This document shows positions 9,121-63,662 of a stretch of 64,000 nucleotides of DNA, one piece after another. Numbering within the stretch: position 1 is the stretch's first letter; each line of letters begins with the position of its first letter. The stretch is from sequence record NC_050153.1. One strand, given 5' to 3'. Below the pieces are notes generated by a model. The model did no database searches and was not told where the DNA came from. It worked only from the letters and a program-made list of their open reading frames with translations. The translations under genes were made by a program, and so were the position numbers. This stretch comes from Escherichia phage vB_EcoM-Ro157c2YLVW.

Positions 9121-9697
9121 ATTGCGGGGCGACTGGCCACTCAACATCCGCTGCTACTGCTGTATCAACACGATTCAACAATACCCGATATGTCTTCCAT
9201 GCAGTCAGTAACGATGCCTCTTCCTCCGTCGCAATATCCAAATCTACGGCATCCTGAAGTGGCGCAATATGCTCACTGGCCATCTGCATCAGGCTGTTTT
9301 TTGTTTCTTCCGCCTTCCGGATCCGGAACAGTTTTTCTGCTTCTGCATCTTTCACCCAGGCTGTGCCGTTCCACTTCTGAAACTCCCCTTCCGGGGATAA
9401 CCAGGTGACATTTTCCGGTAATGGGCCAAGTTCAGAAATAAATAACGCGTCGCCGGAAGCCACGTCATAGACGGTTTTTCCCCGATGGTCTTCAACGAGA
9501 TTCCACGATGCCTCATCACTGTTGAAAACGGCCACGAAGCCAGCCGGAATATCTGGCGGGGCAATATCGGTACTGTTTGCAGGCAGACCTGTATGAGGTG
9601 GAATGTATGCATCACCTTCACCAATAAACTCATTGGTTCCGGTCAGTAGATTATAAATTTTTATGGTCCGTGATTGTTCACTCATTCTGAATGTCAT
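9119..9697 (-). CDS. tail fibre assembly protein (Tfa, U-like)
   Basis: 192-aa ORF directly downstream of the tail fibre gene (stop/start overlap); typical Tfa architecture with conserved N-terminus and variable C-terminus. Confidence 0.75.
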
Positions 9698-22598: not shown

Positions 22599-22695
22599 GT
22601 ATTTTTAAGTCGCGAATGCTATCTTTTCGCATCATATTGACCTTTTAATCGTTCAGGCTTATAGTTCCGCCGTCGTAGCAAATTCTGCGACCGGG

Positions 22696-22717
22696 TTTAG
22701 CAGCCTGAATGATTGTG
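22696..22717 (+). promoter_or_regulatory. upstream c4 target repeat (a1/b1-like)
   Basis: TTTAGCAG...GATTGTG is complementary to CACAATC and CTGCTAA in the predicted c4 RNA. Confidence 0.5.
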
Positions 22718-22785
22718 CGGACAGCCGCAGATATCCGATATTGCGGTATTTTTGTGTCCGTAAAACCGCGTTACGCCCAAATTAT

Positions 22786-22858
22786 GGTGGGGCGTGATGG
22801 GGAGGCTTCGGCCTGCTGGTTTCACAATCGCCAGTCTGCTAACCCCGTCACGTCCTGC
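22786..22858 (+). ncRNA. c4: c4-like antisense repressor RNA (immI)
   Basis: Structured segment with stem TGATGGGG/CCCCGTCA enclosing single-stranded CACAATC and CTGCTAA, complementary to repeats at 22696-22717 and 22864-22900. Confidence 0.5.
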
Positions 22859-22863
22859 CACCT

Positions 22864-22905
22864 GTTTAGCAGCGGGTAGCAGGTTGTTAAACCTGATTGT
22901 GAGGC
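22864..22905 (+). promoter_or_regulatory. downstream c4 target repeat (a2/b2-like) covering the icd RBS
   Basis: TTTAGCAGCGGG...CCTGATTGTGAGG; the GAGG at 22901-22904 is the RBS for the ATG at 22913. Confidence 0.5.
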
Positions 22906-24331: not shown

Positions 24332-25132
24332 ATGCAACAAACATTCAATGCGGATATGAATATATCAAACCTTCATCAAAATGTCGATCCTTCAACCACT
24401 CTGCCTGTTATTTGTGGTGTTGAAATTACGACCGACCGCGCTGGCCGTTACAACCTTAATGCTCTACACAGAGCGAGCGGACTCGGTGCCCATAAAGCGC
24501 CAGCTCAATGGCTAAGAACGCTGTCAGCCAAACAGCTCATCGAAGAGCTTGAAAAAGAAACTATGCAGAATTGCATAGTTTCGTTCGAAGGCCGTGGCGG
24601 CGGCACTTTTGCCCATGAATTGCTCGCTGTGGAGTACGCAGGCTGGATTTCTCCCGCGTTTCGGCTGAAGGTAAACCAGACATTTATCGACTATCGAGCC
24701 GGAAGATTACAACCTGCTATTCCGCAGAGTCTCCCTGAAGCTCTCCGTTTGGCTGCCGACCTGGCAGAGCAAAAGCAACGGCTGGAGCAAAAAATGCTTA
24801 TGGATGCACCTAAAGTCGAATTCGCCGAACGCGTTGCTACCGCCAGCGGAGTTCTAATCGGCAACTATGCCAAAGTGCTCGGCCTGGGCCAAAACTATCT
24901 CTTCACCTGGTTGCGTGATAACGGAATTCTGATCGCAACCGGTGAACGCAGGAACGTCCCCAAACAAGAATACATATCCCGTGGGTATTTCACCCTTAAA
25001 GAAACCGTGATCGATACAAGCAATGGAAGCAGGATTTCTTTCACGACTCGTATAACCGGCAAAGGTCAGCAGTGGCTGATGAAGCGATTGCTTGATGCTG
25101 GTGTGCTGGTACCTGTCGCGGCAACGCGCTAA
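24332..25132 (+). CDS. kilA: KilA (KilA-N DNA-binding domain plus antirepressor-type C-terminal domain)
   Basis: 266-aa ORF; C-terminal 120 aa paralogous to Ant. Confidence 0.7.
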   Translation: MQQTFNADMNISNLHQNVDPSTTLPVICGVEITTDRAGRYNLNALHRASGLGAHKAPAQWLRTLSAKQLIEELEKETMQNCIVSFEGRGGGTFAHELLAVEYAGWISPAFRLKVNQTFIDYRAGRLQPAIPQSLPEALRLAADLAEQKQRLEQKMLMDAPKVEFAERVATASGVLIGNYAKVLGLGQNYLFTWLRDNGILIATGERRNVPKQEYISRGYFTLKETVIDTSNGSRISFTTRITGKGQQWLMKRLLDAGVLVPVAATR

Positions 25133-25161: not shown

Positions 25162-26007
25162 ATGCTGGCTAAAGTCACTTTCCTGAGCTGTATAACGATG
25201 AGCGATTTTACTTTTTCTGGCTATGAATTGGCCTGCTTTGTAACACACTCCGGTCTATCCCGTAGCGCCGGGCATATCCTGTCGCAATGTGCAAATCTCG
25301 CGGCAACAACCAGTGAATACTTCATTCACAAGCCTCACCGCCTGATCGCGGCAGAAACTGGTTATAGCCAATCAACCGTCGTTCGTGCATTCCGTGAAGC
25401 TGTAAACAAAGGAATCCTGTCTGTAGAGATTGTTATCGGCGATCACCGTGAACGTCGCGCTAACCTGTACCGGTTTACACCATCCTTTTTGGCCTTCGCA
25501 CAACAAGCCAAAAATGCGCTGATTGAAAGCAAATTAAAGATCTCTTCAGCGGCAACCAAGGTTAAAGCTGTTCTCGCTAAGACATTGGCTTTATTTAATT
25601 TTTTATCCACACCCCCATGTCAAAATGATACCCCCTCCCCCTGTCAGGATGACGTGGCAATAAAGAATAAGAAGTCACAAGTTAAAAAAACAAAAAGATC
25701 AGTTTCCGGCGGTGCCGGAACGAGCAGACTCAAAAAATTGACTTCATGGATCGCTGAGGCAAAAGCAAAGGCTGACAATCTGCGGTTATCCAAAAAACGC
25801 GCTCAAAAACATGAGTTCAAGCAGAAAGTAGAGGCGGCAGCGCGGAAATATGCTTACCTGAAGGACAAGCGTTCTCCTGATATTGGCGGGATATCAAACT
25901 TCGATAATCTGCCGCATTGCATGACGGTAAACGAAGCTCTTAATGCGGTTTTAGCCAAAAATAAAGATAACGAACAATGGGGTATACCGGCAGGATTCAG
26001 AGGGTGA
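25162..26007 (+). CDS. repL: RepL-like lytic replication initiator
   Basis: 281-aa ORF directly after kilA; size and position match P1 repL as recalled. Confidence 0.55.
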   Translation: MLAKVTFLSCITMSDFTFSGYELACFVTHSGLSRSAGHILSQCANLAATTSEYFIHKPHRLIAAETGYSQSTVVRAFREAVNKGILSVEIVIGDHRERRANLYRFTPSFLAFAQQAKNALIESKLKISSAATKVKAVLAKTLALFNFLSTPPCQNDTPSPCQDDVAIKNKKSQVKKTKRSVSGGAGTSRLKKLTSWIAEAKAKADNLRLSKKRAQKHEFKQKVEAAARKYAYLKDKRSPDIGGISNFDNLPHCMTVNEALNAVLAKNKDNEQWGIPAGFRG

Positions 26008-26303
26008 TAGATTGCTCTAATCTGGAGTCACCTGGCGTTTTCAGTTTGAGGTCGGAGATGCAATCTGATTTTTTACAGTTAGCGATCGCTTTTGCAGGAT
26101 ATGTTTGTATTGGCTTCTGTGTATACATGATCAGCCGAAAAATGCTTGTCGATATCGACCGCAAAGAACAAGCAGAGGAGATCTTAGTATGGATTTTCTT
26201 TGGCGCGGTCTGGCCATTAGGGATCATGTTTGCTGCAACATTTCTTCTGATGTGGATATTCACCCTTCCAGGTGATTTCTATAGAAAAAAAGCCAGACAT
26301 TGA
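25977..26303 (+). CDS. small membrane protein (two hydrophobic helices)
   Basis: 108-aa ORF overlapping repL end; start uncertain. Confidence 0.4.
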   Translation: MGYTGRIQRVIDCSNLESPGVFSLRSEMQSDFLQLAIAFAGYVCIGFCVYMISRKMLVDIDRKEQAEEILVWIFFGAVWPLGIMFAATFLLMWIFTLPGDFYRKKARH

Positions 26304-26374
26304 TACAATCGTTGCGGGTGCTTGAGGCTATCTGCTTCAGGCATTACCCGAAAAGCAGATAGAAGAAAGCCCCA

Positions 26375-26435
26375 GATAACATTACGCGTCCTGCAAGACG
26401 CTTAACATTAATCTGAGGCCACATCTATGCTTAGC
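26375..26435 (-). ncRNA. Sok-like antisense RNA candidate
   Basis: Minus-strand promoter TTGACC (26466-26471) -18 nt- TAATCT (26442-26447) directs transcription antisense across the mok start/RBS; 3' end not defined. Confidence 0.35.
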
Positions 26436-26633
26436 ATACGTAGATTAGCCTCTTACCGACCAAAAGGTCAAGGAGAAGCAGGCTATGAAGCAGCAAAAAG
26501 CGATGTTAATCGCTCTGATCGTCATCTGTTTAACCGTCATTGTGACGGCACTGGTAACGAGGAAAGACCTCTGCGAGGTACGAATCCGAACCGGCCAGAC
26601 GGAGGTCACTGTCTTCACAGCCTACGAATCTGA
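26427..26633 (+). CDS. mok: Mok-like overlapping reading frame
   Basis: 68-aa frame starting upstream of and overlapping hok in a different frame, the canonical hok/mok arrangement. Confidence 0.45.
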   Translation: MLSIRRLASYRPKGQGEAGYEAAKSDVNRSDRHLFNRHCDGTGNEERPLRGTNPNRPDGGHCLHSLRI

Positions 26634-26640
26634 AAGGTAA
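26485..26640 (+). CDS. hok: Hok/Gef-family type I membrane toxin (51 aa)
   Basis: Below the 60-aa track cutoff: MKQQKAMLIALIVICLTVIVTALVTRKDLCEVRIRTGQTEVTVFTAYESER; AGGAG RBS 9 nt upstream; matches the Hok signature (TM helix then TRKxLCE[IV]R...EVAAF.AYES). Confidence 0.8.
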   Translation: MKQQKAMLIALIVICLTVIVTALVTRKDLCEVRIRTGQTEVTVFTAYESER

Positions 26641-26713
26641 GAGACCTGGCGGGGAGAGATCCCCGCCACTCTTCGTGTGTCAGGTATCCTCAATGCACCC
26701 TTTCCTCTCCAAA

Positions 26714-26741
26714 TAAAAAAGCTCCCGAAGGAGCTTTAAAA
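26714..26741. terminator. bidirectional terminator between hok and the convergent structural operon
   Basis: AAGCTCC-CGAA-GGAGCTT stem flanked by A-run and T/A-run. Confidence 0.6.
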
Positions 26742-26756
26742 TACAAGGGATTACTA

Positions 26757-27266
26757 TTAATCCCACTCAATCCAGTTGTAGACGATACGAAGTGACGGGC
26801 GCACAGCGGCAGTCACATCTTCGGTACTAAAGTCGATTGCATCACTGTAGATTTTGCAGTCCAACATTTCAATTGTTGTAGCAGCTTTTGTCACAGCGTT
26901 AACCCCGGAAGATTTGGATTCAGGGGTAGCAGCCATCGTGATATCAACATAGTCCTTCGCCGCAATGCGATCCTTGATGAACTGAAGAATATCGCCTTCG
27001 ATAGTCTCCACGCACTGGACCTGGATTTCCCCAGAGTTTCGAATTGGTCCGTGCTGGTTGAACTTCACACCATTCGGACCATAGTCCTCCACATCCTCGC
27101 GGGTCATTTCAGGAATTTGCGACGTGCGAACCAGTACGCTGATATCTTCATGGCCTGCAACAGTGAGCTGGAATTCAGAAGATACCAGTCGTTCGCCTTT
27201 GGCCGCGTTGGCAGTATAGCGGCCCTTAATAAATTTACGGTTTCCCTTAGTGTTATTGTGCCCCAT
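26757..27266 (-). CDS. virion structural protein (small)
   Basis: 169-aa ORF at the end of the head/sheath/tube operon. Confidence 0.45.
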   Translation of the reverse strand: MGHNNTKGNRKFIKGRYTANAAKGERLVSSEFQLTVAGHEDISVLVRTSQIPEMTREDVEDYGPNGVKFNQHGPIRNSGEIQVQCVETIEGDILQFIKDRIAAKDYVDITMAATPESKSSGVNAVTKAATTIEMLDCKIYSDAIDFSTEDVTAAVRPSLRIVYNWIEWD

Positions 27267-44425: not shown

Positions 44426-44500
44426 GATGGTGTAGCTCAGCGGTAGAGCAGTTGGCTGTTAACCAACTGGTCGGTAGTTCGAATCCACCCACCATCGCCA
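44426..44500 (+). tRNA. tRNA-Asn (anticodon GTT)
   Basis: Cloverleaf: acceptor GATGGTG/CACCATC, D-arm GCTCAGCGGTAGAGC, anticodon loop CTGTTAA, T-loop TTCGAAT, encoded CCA. Confidence 0.75.
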
Positions 44501-44505
44501 CTTTA

Positions 44506-44592
44506 GGGGAGTTAGTCCGTAGGGGTAGCGGGGTAGACTGTAAATCTACTGTCATTGCGACTCGGGTGGTTCGACTCCATCACTCCCCACCA
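44506..44592 (+). tRNA. class II tRNA-like gene with GTA anticodon (tRNA-Tyr-like), atypical D-arm
   Basis: Acceptor GGGGAGT/ACTCCCC, anticodon stem-loop GTAGA-CTGTAAA-TCTAC, long variable arm hairpin, T-loop TTCGACT, encoded CCA; D-stem only 3 bp with 4-nt spacer. Confidence 0.55.
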
Positions 44593-44596
44593 CATT

Positions 44597-44672
44597 GCCG
44601 ATTTAGCTCAGTTGGTAGAGCAGTCGCTTTGTAAGCGAATGGTCAGCGGTTCGATCCCGTTAATCGGCACCA
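44597..44672 (+). tRNA. tRNA-Thr (anticodon TGT)
   Basis: Acceptor GCCGATT/AATCGGC, D-arm GCTCAGTTGGTAGAGC, anticodon loop TTTGTAA, T-loop TTCGATC, encoded CCA. Confidence 0.75.
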
Positions 44673-45532
44673 ACATAACAGGTAAGAGCATTCTCCCTTA
44701 TGGGGCCTGGCTTAAATGCATCGAGTGCTCTTACCGTTGTGATGAAGTGCAGATCTTAGAAGCAACCAGAAGATAAGCATCTGGCTTCACAACATAAACC
44801 GCAGGAACGACCAATAAACGGTAGTCCGTATGGAGAACACCCCGTTGAGGAAGAGGCCTGGCCGGAACCGTAACCGGCGACTGGTAATGTGTGTAAATGG
44901 AGCGAAATATGTGGGCGTTTAACGGGATACGGGTTGTAACAGCGATTATTAACGGCGAACTTAAGTATTCACGTTTCGAGACAAATGAACGTGATGGGAA
45001 ATGTATTGGTGTGCGGTTAGTAAGAGAATACGCATAACAACTACAACGTTGAGAACACTGGCGTAACGGGGTCATATCCCAATCTACGAATAAATGTTGC
45101 GTTGCCGCGTGACAACCAGTGTTCTCAACATTGTGGTGAATGCACAGGCTGATGTGCCGCAACTACAGTAGTGCGCGCTTTGCGGGGCTTGCTACAACCC
45201 TGTGTCGGAGTTCAGCACCGACCATCACAGTTTGATTCTCTGGCATGAGCATAACGCTGAAATAAGTCCAGTCTGGTGCGGTCTGATCACCCGCCGTTAG
45301 CTCCACGAAACGGAGCACGTAACAGGTAAGAGCATTCTCCTGTAACAATCTACAGGTCCACCAAGAATGCTCTTTCCGTTGCGGTGAATGCGGCTAAGCG
45401 CACGCGGGGAAATGGTTATATCTGTCCATTATTTCTCCTTGTTTCCACGTCCACGGTGGATAACCAGCCAAAGGACACCGGGAGGAACCCGGCACCGCAG
45501 CTTTTTTATTCGTTAAATAATGGAGTGAGAGG

Positions 45533-45769
45533 ATGCAGAACAATCCGAACAAATGTCGAACGCTATGGGTGCGGTTATATATTTATGCCGTCCTCTGTTT
45601 GATTGTGTCACTGGTTCTGTATGTTTGGCTTTTGCCAAATATGATCTCATCTAACAGCACAATACTTGTATTGTTGGGAGTCCTTCTCGCGCTCATTTAC
45701 CCGGCTTTCGCAGTAGTCTTTTTTCGTGAAAAAACCAGGAAATTAATTAATGAAAAAAACGTTGATTAG
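45533..45769 (+). CDS. small membrane protein (two TM helices)
   Basis: 78-aa ORF upstream of and overlapping the SPFH lipoprotein gene. Confidence 0.5.
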   Translation: MQNNPNKCRTLWVRLYIYAVLCLIVSLVLYVWLLPNMISSNSTILVLLGVLLALIYPAFAVVFFREKTRKLINEKNVD

Positions 45770-46577
45770 TGCAGCGATTATTTTGGGTTCTTTATGTCTG
45801 ACCGGATGCGATCGGGTAGAGCCAGGTAACGTAGGGATCAAAGTAAATAAGCTGGGGGATGATAAAGGTATCGGTGAAGTAGTTGGCGTTGGTCGCTACT
45901 GGACAGGCTTGAATACTGAAGTTTATATCTTCCCGACCTTTAAGCAAATGAAGACATACGATGAGCCGTTCAGCTTCCAGATGAGCGACGGAACAACCAT
46001 TGGTTACCACATCGGCGTAGCCTACAAGGTTGATCCAGCAAAAGTCACAACGGTATTTCAGACCTATCGCAAAGGTGTAGATGATATTACTGATACCGAT
46101 CTACGCCAGAAGGTTGCAGATGCTCTGAACCGATTAGCCAGCAAAATGACCACCGACAAATTTATCGACGGTGGCAAATCTGAATTGCTTGATGCAGCCC
46201 TTAAAGACATTCAGGAAGAAATGACGCCAATCGGCATTCAGGTGATGAGCCTCTCTTATGTAGGTAAGCCAGAATACCCGCCAACAGTTATTGACAGTAT
46301 TAACGCCAAAGTCACGGCAAACCAAAAAACCCTGCAACGCGAGCAAGAGGTCAAACAACGTGAAGCAGAGGCCAACATGCTGCGCGCGGAAGCTGCCGGA
46401 CAGGCTGATGCTATTCGCACAAAAGCCCAGGCCGAAGCTGATGCCATTCGTTTACGTGGTGAAGCTCTGCGCCAGAACCCCGGTGTTATGGACTTGGAAG
46501 CGATCAACAAATGGAACGGTACATTACCGCAGTATATGACCAGTAATACCGCTGTTCCGTTTGTTCCGGTGAAATAA
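45750..46577 (+). CDS. SPFH/band-7 (prohibitin-like) domain lipoprotein
   Basis: Lipobox LCLTGC after signal peptide MKKTLISAAIILGS; SPFH-like core followed by Ala/Gln/Glu-rich coiled coil. Confidence 0.65.
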   Translation: MKKTLISAAIILGSLCLTGCDRVEPGNVGIKVNKLGDDKGIGEVVGVGRYWTGLNTEVYIFPTFKQMKTYDEPFSFQMSDGTTIGYHIGVAYKVDPAKVTTVFQTYRKGVDDITDTDLRQKVADALNRLASKMTTDKFIDGGKSELLDAALKDIQEEMTPIGIQVMSLSYVGKPEYPPTVIDSINAKVTANQKTLQREQEVKQREAEANMLRAEAAGQADAIRTKAQAEADAIRLRGEALRQNPGVMDLEAINKWNGTLPQYMTSNTAVPFVPVK

Positions 46578-46604
46578 AAGCGTAAGCAAAATTGGCAGTA
46601 ATCC

Positions 46605-46680
46605 GGCCCTTTAGCTCAGTGGTTAGAGCTGGCGACTCATAATCGCACGGTCACCGGTTCAAGTCCGGTAGGGGCCACCA
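46605..46680 (+). tRNA. tRNA with CAT anticodon, Ile2 (lysidine)-type by resemblance to E. coli ileX; elongator Met not excluded
   Basis: Acceptor GGCCCTT/AGGGGCC, D-arm GCTCAGTGGTTAGAGC, anticodon arm GGCGACTCATAATCGC, T-loop TTCAAGT, encoded CCA. Confidence 0.7.
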
Positions 46681-62378: not shown

Positions 62379-63067
62379 AATTTTCCAAATTTTCTGAGTT
62401 GGTGAATCGTATTTTGTCCAACAACCACAGCCATCGTCGCGATATGGATGTAACGATCGTTGTTCATTCGCCTGGCAGCATTGGTTCAACACCTTCAGTT
62501 GAGGTTCAGTCAATTCACGCTGGTTTTGATTGGGATTCCGGGAAAGTGCTTATTTTCCCATCACAGCCACTGACCACGCTAACACCAGAACAGATTACTG
62601 ATATCACTGATAGTGTGCGCAAAGGTCAGTCTTGGCACGCATATCAGGAATACAAGAAGCATCAAGAGCAGTTGGAAAAATTGTCGATTGAACTGGATGC
62701 CGCAAAACAGCGCATTGCAGAGCTGGATGGTAATCGCACGGCGCTGGCAGTGGAGAATGCCTCAATGAAGCTGTTTATCAGGGGCTGTTGCTACGTGTTT
62801 GATGGCCAGCAGGATGAAATATCTGATGCGTATATCTGCGCAACAGACGGAGGGATGCCGCAAATTCCAGCCACCGACGCTTTCCTGGCTGAAGCTCGGG
62901 CGCAGGGGGTAGAGATGATGCGCGAACACCCATCAATCAAACTTTGCTCTTTGACGCACATATGTGATGAGTTAGCCGCCCAGCTTCGAAAAGGAGAGCT
63001 GCATATGATGTTTGACGCTGGCATTCACATCAAAGGAGAAGAGCATGGAAATAAAACCAGAAGATGA
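62375..63067 (+). CDS. early protein, paralog B
   Basis: AAAGGGGA RBS; segment IPATDAFLAEARAQG. Confidence 0.5.
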   Translation: MKFSKFSELVNRILSNNHSHRRDMDVTIVVHSPGSIGSTPSVEVQSIHAGFDWDSGKVLIFPSQPLTTLTPEQITDITDSVRKGQSWHAYQEYKKHQEQLEKLSIELDAAKQRIAELDGNRTALAVENASMKLFIRGCCYVFDGQQDEISDAYICATDGGMPQIPATDAFLAEARAQGVEMMREHPSIKLCSLTHICDELAAQLRKGELHMMFDAGIHIKGEEHGNKTRR

Positions 63068-63404
63068 GTTAAGTAATATTGTTTTATTTCCGGTAAAAGA
63101 GGATGACCCACGTAATCAGGTTAATTTTCTTTATGAACCATCGGAAAGACCATATTGCCATCATGCCTCTGTCCGGGTTGATGAAAAAGAGCGTCAGGTC
63201 CGCTGTAAAATCTGCGGTGCAGTTGTGGAGCCATTTGACTGGATGCTCTCTGTTGCGAAAAGAGAAACCAGGCTGGCAGATGATGTAAAACTATTGCGCC
63301 AGGAGGAACAGGAAAGGCGAAAAAATATAGAAAAGCTAATTCAGATTGAGCGTAACGCGAAAGCGCGGATACGCAGAGCGACAAAATCCAGAACTGAATA
63401 TTAA
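63045..63404 (+). CDS. zinc-ribbon-containing small protein
   Basis: AAAGGAGA RBS; CHH...CKIC pattern; basic coiled-coil C-terminus. Confidence 0.45.
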   Translation: MEIKPEDELSNIVLFPVKEDDPRNQVNFLYEPSERPYCHHASVRVDEKERQVRCKICGAVVEPFDWMLSVAKRETRLADDVKLLRQEEQERRKNIEKLIQIERNAKARIRRATKSRTEY

Positions 63405-63449: not shown

Positions 63450-63662
63450 ATGTTAAATACACAGAAAACCATTAACGCGGAAAAATATAACGAGTGGGTA
63501 AAAAAATTCTCTGAGCAGATTTTTAAAATTACTGCTGACGAGAATGTAGCAAAAAATGAATTAGAGCCGTGGACACCTGAAGGAACCGACCCAAATTATT
63601 GCTGGTGGGAGGTTGATCCGGTTGATGCTGCAAATGAAGCCATGAGTTACCACAACGATTAA
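63450..63662 (+). CDS. hypothetical small acidic protein
   Basis: GGAGG RBS; 70 aa. Confidence 0.45.
   Translation: MLNTQKTINAEKYNEWVKKFSEQIFKITADENVAKNELEPWTPEGTDPNYCWWEVDPVDAANEAMSYHND

Follow-up and report, generated by a model that had tools for sequence, protein, structure and literature searches.

A hok/mok/sok-type toxin–antitoxin cassette carried between repL and bplB in a P1-like plasmid-prophage

The window analysed here, a stretch of 64,000 nucleotides from the Escherichia phage vB_EcoM-Ro157c2YLVW record NC_050153.1, is by its sequence a P1-like plasmid-prophage (Punavirus), aligning by megablast at 97–99 % identity with P1, P7 and P1-like phages and plasmids. The locus of interest lies downstream of kilA (24332-25132), whose product carries KilA-N and ANT domains in Pfam, and of repL (25162-26007, with its stop at 26007), and is followed by bplB on the minus strand (26757-27266). 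Elsewhere in the window, Rfam models pick out the C4 antisense RNA of P1 immunity and its a1/b1 targets (22659-22865, plus strand), IS009 RNA (9156-9354, minus strand, 192.7 bits) and four tRNA genes (44426-46677, plus strand), all of which are expected in a P1-like genome.

Homology to canonical P1 (AF234172) ends at window position 26021 and resumes at 26715. The intervening 693 bp (26022-26714), which hold an 81-aa open reading frame (ORF) and a hok/sok cassette, stand between repL and bplB in place of the 1826-bp rlfA-rlfB-pmgF of P1. The left junction (26011-26027) falls just after repL, inside the C1 operator Op55/Orlf, whose conserved half, ATTGCTCTAAT, is retained in the window while the remainder diverges; C1 control of the downstream 81-aa ORF may or may not persist. 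P7 carries rapA and other cargo between repL and bplB, and RCS47 and SJ46 carry an ORF81-like gene together with a minus-strand gene of approximately 200 aa, the ORF81-like gene of RCS47 being interrupted by ISEc46. The differing cargo of P1, P7, RCS47, SJ46 and the window therefore marks the repL-bplB interval as a variable cargo slot.

The 81-aa ORF (26058-26303, plus strand) encodes a hydrophobic product with two hydrophobic stretches, or a product of 108 aa if its start is at 25977, in which case it overlaps the end of repL. It is called by PGAP in NC_013370.1, matches phrog_3772 (function unassigned) over its full length at 7.9e-54 and is restricted to P1-like phages, the SJ46 version being 44 % identical; searches of Pfam, NCBIfam and PADLOC returned no match. 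We regard it as a neighbour of the toxin–antitoxin system within the 693-bp replacement segment. Its presence between the repL stop at 26007 and the start of the hok mRNA at 26316 makes the statement of the first-pass annotation, that the module sits right after the lytic replicon gene, an approximate one. The cassette begins 309 bp past repL on the same strand, and between them there is just a weak terminator-like hairpin (26260-26275).

Toxins of the hok/sok family are Hok/Gef membrane proteins of about 50 aa with an N-terminal transmembrane helix and a conserved TRK-LCE-R motif. The hok gene of the window (26485-26640, plus strand) encodes 51 aa (MKQQKAMLIALIVICLTVIVTALVTRKDLCEVRIRTGQTEVTVFTAYESER) and has its Shine–Dalgarno (SD) sequence, AAGGAG, at 26470-26475, 9 nt before the ATG, confirming the 51-aa toxin with a good ribosome-binding site that the first-pass annotation had proposed. 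Pfam HOK_GEF (PF01848) matches the protein at 78.7 bits (cut-off 22; E 2.4e-22) over profile positions 1-42 of 42, and phrog_251 ('MokW-like host killing') matches it at 4.9e-32, while the NCBIfam Hok models match below their curated cut-offs (49.5 bits vs 73). For comparison, 47 hok loci were gathered from a species-representative genome set, and the 29 full-length loci, which are 67–99 % identical to the window and come from Escherichia, Kluyvera, Citrobacter, Photorhabdus, Erwinia and others, were aligned. The LVTRKDLCEVRIR motif of Hok is invariant across these 29 loci.

In this family the antisense RNA acts not on hok directly but on a second reading frame, mok, which begins upstream of hok, overlaps it and has an SD of its own. 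The 68-aa frame at 26427-26633 (plus strand), previously read as mok over hok, does overlap the toxin gene, is preceded by an SD (GAGG) at 26415-26418 and finishes 7 nt short of the hok stop. Its start lies 58 nt upstream of that of hok, so that mok occupies a different frame (+1). The frame matches phrog_37205 and no Pfam family. Each of the 29 relatives has a mok-type start, whose frame relative to hok takes one of three forms: in frame in 933W, Photorhabdus and one IncFII R1-type copy; in the +1 frame with a long overlap in the window and Kluyvera; and as a 19-codon upstream ORF that overlaps the hok start through ATGA in E. ruysiae and Erwinia. Such variation agrees with the accepted view of mok, in which it is translation itself that counts and not the peptide produced.

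Sok RNAs of the family are antisense RNAs of about 65–70 nt, encoded in cis and complementary to the region where mok translation starts; each has a promoter and a terminator hairpin of its own. On the minus strand of the window, a Sok-like gene of 71 nt (26365-26435, read 26435→26365) aligns base for base with the annotated SokW RNA of phage 933W, with 62 of 71 positions identical, equal length and an equal -10 position, and is complementary to both the mok SD (26415-26418) and the mok ATG (26427). The predicted RNA has a single-stranded 5' tail, a long hairpin and a U-rich end (-30.1 kcal/mol, z -4.4). Of the nine differences from SokW, six are concentrated in the single-stranded recognition tail, which makes up the first 16 nt (26420-26435), and this tail and the stretch before the 3' fold-back element (26671-26687) are the least conserved parts of the 29-locus alignment. 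Divergence of the tail could insulate co-resident hok/sok copies from cross-neutralisation.

The predicted Sok promoter (26442-26471, minus strand) has its -35 box TTGACC at 26471..26466, an 18-nt spacer, its -10 box TAATCT at 26447..26442 and a predicted start at 26435. The first-pass annotation had located these boxes correctly but overstated the case in calling them near-consensus: the -35 matches at five of six positions with the spacer at 18 nt, but the -10 matches only at three of six (T1, A2, T6), and a generic sigma-70 scan did not list the promoter. Its credibility comes instead from homology to the experimentally mutated sokW promoter: TAATCT corresponds in position to the sokW -10 (TAACCT), the box that was mutated in a 'pro-less' construct (primer YO-421) with loss of antitoxin activity (Takada et al., PMC8621323). 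For hok itself, a consensus scan predicts a plus-strand promoter at 26282-26309, comprising TAGAAA, a 16-nt spacer and a TG-extended TACAAT (TAGAAA-16-TGATACAAT). Its -10 box ends 6 nt upstream of G26316, the 5' end of the mRNA, and falls within the homology to 933W that begins at 26304, while the -35 region is not shared with 933W.

The conserved core of the hok mRNA, with 5' leader, mok, hok and 3' untranslated region (UTR), extends over 26316-26700 on the plus strand, as delimited by Rfam, homology to 933W, folding and the structure common to the 29 loci. The first-pass annotation had suggested a covariance search, and this returned Rfam RF01794 ('sok antitoxin') at 26316-26490 on the plus strand, full length over model positions 1-157, at 114.8 bits against a gathering threshold of 59 (E 2.2e-25), which, like the Pfam score of Hok, lies well outside what chance would produce. 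Model position 1 aligns to G26316, which also aligns with the 5' end of the R1-type locus. We rejected this match as proof of a plus-strand Sok: the consensus of the model ends at the hok AUG, and the model therefore describes the sense-strand leader and certifies the leader architecture, not an antisense transcript. Taken literally, the match would put Sok on the wrong strand and between the wrong limits, the predicted RNA running 26435→26365 on the minus strand.

Folding of the full-length RNA (26316-26712) gave a minimum free energy (MFE) of -157.7 kcal/mol with a z of -7.56. In hok mRNAs of the family, long-range 5'-3' pairing between the tac and fbi elements locks the full-length molecule. 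In the MFE structure of the window RNA, a tac-like 5' element (GGGTGCTTGAGG, 26316-26327) pairs with an fbi-like 3' fold-back element (CCTCAATGCACCC, 26688-26700) around one bulged U, the lock reading GGGUGCUUGAGG (26316-26327) with CCUCAAUGCACCC (26688-26700). The family further pairs ucb with dcb in the full-length mRNA and refolds to tac–ucb after 3' processing. The window has a ucb-like box (CUCUUACC, 26450-26457) paired in the MFE structure with a dcb-like box (GGUAAGAG, 26636-26643) that spans the hok stop codon, and its tac (GAGGCUA) is complementary to its ucb (UAGCCUC). When the RNA is truncated at its 3' end (26316-26672), the MFE structure retains the ucb–dcb helix and forms a local fold at the 5' end, with no tac–ucb pairing, the refolding pathway being kinetic and processing-dependent. 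A GC-rich hairpin, GGCGGGGA-GAGA-TCCCCGCC, follows in the 3' UTR at 26648-26667.

Beyond the fold-back element, a bidirectional terminator-like hairpin, AAAGCTCC-TTCG-GGAGCTTT (26718-26737, both strands), lies between the converging hok cassette and bplB operon, in sequence that belongs to the P1 backbone. It is a strong terminator call on the minus strand, for the bplB operon, and it also forms when the hok RNA is extended to include it, with the rest of the fold the same and a z of -10. As hok homology ends at 26700 and the hairpin belongs to the backbone, the hok transcript probably ends at this resident hairpin. The functional unit thus runs from approximately 26282 to approximately 26700, or to 26737 with the terminator, and the span of 26375-26640 given in the first-pass annotation is too short.

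The structure predicted for the window RNA is conserved across the 29 loci. A scan for an ungapped complement of the 5' 12-mer in each 3' UTR proved misleading for Escherichia-type copies, because a single base is bulged in their fbi and spurious optima arise from G·U pairs, and pairs were therefore counted from the alignment instead. Projected onto the alignment, 85.9 % of the cells of the window MFE structure are standard-paired, compared with 37–44 % when the 3' partners are slid by one to three columns. Cells changed on both sides number 161, as against 79 ± 8 in shuffles, none of 500 of which reached 161, and the covariation score is 0.170 as against 0.127. The tac–fbi helix (helix 1) is 89.9 % paired and contains a compensatory UA↔CG pair: at alignment pair 4/402, UA occurs 19 times, CG seven times and UG twice, the switch from UA to CG being that of seven Photorhabdus copies (GGGCGC…/…GCGCCC), as in TCTCAAGCGCCC vs GGGCGCTTGAGA. 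Changes on both sides occur in six pairs of the Sok-target hairpin (helix 5) and in four of the 3'-UTR hairpin (helix 17, 87 % paired). Pairing in the ucb–dcb helix (helix 8) reaches 88.7 %, but most of the helix is invariant, so that covariation speaks neither for nor against it.

The closest characterised relative is the hokW/mokW/sokW locus of 933W, whose record annotates hokW, mokW and the 71-nt SokW RNA. The two share 87 % nucleotide identity over window positions 26304-26700 and none outside, all sequence past fbi and that of the hok-promoter -35 region being unrelated. The window Hok is identical to HokW of the Stx2 phages 933W and Sp5 (VT2-Sakai) at 47 of 51 residues (92 %). A one-nucleotide insertion, T26468, gives the Sok promoter of the window its TTGACC-18 arrangement, as compared with TTGCCT-17 in 933W, and shifts mok out of the reading frame of its toxin gene, whereas mokW shares that of hokW. 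The hosts of the two loci also differ, the window being a P1-like plasmid-prophage and hokW-sokW belonging to an integrated lambdoid phage.

Comparison with the hok/mok/sok (parB) locus of plasmid R1 shows the same gene order and conserved boxes in the same places. These comprise GCTTGAGGCT (tac), GAGGC and ATG (mok), TAGCCTCTTACCG (ucb and the Sok -10), CAAGGAGAAG..ATGAA (hok SD and the Sok -35), GTAAG (dcb), the CCCGCC hairpin and GAAGCGCC/AATGCACCC (fbi). The R1-type locus used here carries a Hok identical to the R1 sequence, and R1 itself has an out-of-frame mok with a 58-nt offset, as in the window. The proteins are nevertheless only 42 % identical, the mean column identity of the nucleotide alignment, flanks included, is approximately 72 %, and the Sok-target hairpin is longer in the window than in R1.

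Two chromosomal loci (L008 and L009; MKQQ…AYEPEE) encode a Hok that is likewise identical to that of the window at 47 of 51 residues, or 96 % over residues 1-50, and hokD is the RefSeq name of the gene in identical plasmids, as in hokD (relF) of the Qin prophage of E. coli K-12. The K-12 hokD locus is described as lacking functional mok/sok regulation, unlike the window copy with its full regulatory set. A cassette 88.6 % identical to that of the window is present in prophage Tritos of E. coli LF82, where HokD mRNA far exceeds all other prophage moron transcripts in abundance (PMC9928086), which is consistent with a stable, stored mRNA.

The cassette is widespread among plasmids. In PLSDB, a 901-bp probe for the hok arrangement is matched over at least 80 % of its length in 262 plasmids, and a 2001-bp probe for that of canonical P1 over at least 80 % in 99, two counts that come from non-identical searches. 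Within the former group, 221 plasmids are at least 99 % identical to the window, and several are 100 % identical over the probe, including pO111_2 (NC_013370.1) of E. coli O111:H- 11128, in which PGAP annotates 'hokD: type I toxin-antitoxin system toxin HokD'. The first-pass description of a module hidden below the ORF-size cutoff was thus true of its own ORF track but not of RefSeq, where PGAP names hokD in identical plasmids. RefSeq copies annotate the toxin gene but not mok, the Sok RNA, the promoters or the 5' and 3' regulatory elements. The phage record MH422554 mislabels the Hok ORF as 'MokW', and phi456 is without annotation there. The same type of cassette is common in integrated lambdoid prophages. 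A literature search for hok in P1-like or phage-plasmid contexts turned up passing mentions only.

Many chromosomal hok loci are inactivated, including several in E. coli K-12, and it might be asked whether the present copy is a similar relic, carried passively. Our own collection contains such decay, with a diverged 5' end in one locus (L013) and truncations in others. In the window, however, all elements are intact: both promoters, tac, the mok SD and ATG, the hok SD and ORF, ucb, dcb and fbi. The conservation at or above 99 % in 221 plasmids and the proven function of its closest relative, hokW-sokW, also speak against decay, and we consider an inactive relic very improbable. The toxin family, the overlapping mok, the SokW-homologous antisense gene, the 5'/3' fold-back, the ucb and dcb boxes and the Rfam model all agree with the type I hok/mok/sok identity put forward in the first-pass annotation. 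We therefore hold with high confidence that the window carries a complete cassette of this type, of the HokD/HokW subgroup, as cargo between the repL and bplB genes of a P1-like plasmid-prophage.

We propose the following scheme for its action, each step of which is modelled on the hok/sok family. The weak constitutive promoter at 26282-26309 would produce a stable hok mRNA of approximately 385–425 nt, which tac–fbi and ucb–dcb pairing would keep closed to both translation and antisense binding. Slow 3' trimming would then remove fbi and activate the RNA. While the element is present, a short-lived 71-nt Sok, transcribed from the convergent promoter at 26471-26442, would pair across the ribosome-binding site and start codon of mok, blocking mok translation, and hence the coupled translation of hok, and marking the duplex for RNase III. 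Once the supply of Sok stops, the stored mRNA would be translated and the 51-aa Hok would enter the inner membrane, where it would kill or lyse the cell.

Stabilisation by post-segregational killing would be the most likely payoff of such a device in a plasmid-prophage. Modules of this kind act when the replicon is lost, the segregants dying or ceasing to grow and the plasmid appearing more stable as a result. Killing of this type has been demonstrated for R1, and we infer it for the window copy, for which it is plausible and reasonable given its setting: the element is a P1-like plasmid-prophage by its C4 RNA, kilA, repL and bplB, and the cassette is kept in 262 PLSDB plasmids. P1-type elements have their own addiction module, phd/doc, so that hok/sok may be redundant for stability. 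The phd/doc region lies beyond the end of the window, and the ORFs at 63012-63404 and 63450-63662 gave no Phd, Doc or Fic match.

A second payoff, which may accompany stabilisation, is suggested by the closest homologue, for which the demonstrated phenotype is assistance of lysis and not maintenance (PMC8621323). The hokW-sokW locus of Sp5 is an experimentally proven type I toxin–antitoxin, with experiments behind every key step of the circuit: HokW localises to the inner membrane and arrests growth when induced by arabinose, while SokW expressed from its own promoter protects, in a manner partly dependent on RNase III and Hfq (PMC8621323). Upon induction of Sp5 by mitomycin C or heat, SokW vanishes while hokW mRNA persists, HokW appears approximately 1 h before endolysin, and the phage with the locus releases two-fold more particles than the deletion mutant, in which release is halved (PMC8621323). 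As the system proven in Sp5 aids lysis on induction, post-segregational killing by the window copy is a plausible extension from the family, and help with lysis could well be added to it, given a HokW that is 92 % identical.

Alternatively, the same mechanism may have been selected primarily in support of the lytic cycle, with Sok lost after induction and Hok permeabilising the inner membrane early, to the benefit of lysis and release. The near-identity to HokW argues in this direction, as does the frequent presence of the same cassette type in lambdoid prophages, which are integrated and hence not subject to segregational loss. The position of the cassette, on the same strand 309 bp past repL with just the weak hairpin between, would offer a switch, in that read-through from kilA-repL, an operon under C1 control, could run head-on into the Sok promoter. 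That read-through and the attendant interference are, however, conjecture on our part, the effect in Sp5 is a modest two-fold one, and P1 has its own holin and endolysin, the canonical phage managing without hok. Lytic support as the main role is possible, but in our judgement less likely than post-segregational killing.

Exclusion of other phages is a further candidate role. Here a virulent phage would stop host transcription, Sok would decay and Hok would kill the cell before the invader finishes. The repL-bplB interval resembles defence hot-spots in being a variable cargo slot, and hok/sok of R1 on a high-copy plasmid cut T4 plating by 42 % and plaque size by ~85 % (summarised in the discussion of PMC8621323). 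The T4 effect was nonetheless small and seen at high copy, and no PADLOC defence model matches either Hok or the 81-aa ORF; we think an abortive infection device unlikely. Only slightly less doubtful is a composite in which the cassette serves as a dual-use switch: a second addiction system beside phd/doc during lysogeny, in which kilA-repL read-through after C1 inactivation would silence Sok and let Hok prime lysis, and in which the divergent Sok 5' tail would insulate the locus from hokW-sokW of Stx prophages in the same EHEC cells. Among the single roles, we place post-segregational killing, possibly joined by lysis assistance, ahead of lysis assistance as the main role, followed by exclusion and lastly by an inactive relic.

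At the level of kind, the cassette holds no novelty, being an ordinary, already known and annotated member of its family, and it leaves the understanding of the hok/sok mechanism unchanged. The main value of the analysis is one of annotation hygiene, and a modest residual interest attaches to the role of the cassette in P1-like phage-plasmids and to its frequency at repL-bplB relative to reference P1. In the commonest arrangement that we found among sequenced P1-like plasmids, a type I toxin–antitoxin occupies the place of the rlfA, rlfB and pmgF of textbook P1. This bears on the use of P1 as the reference for the group and on the stability of P1-like phage-plasmids, among which several have resistance genes.
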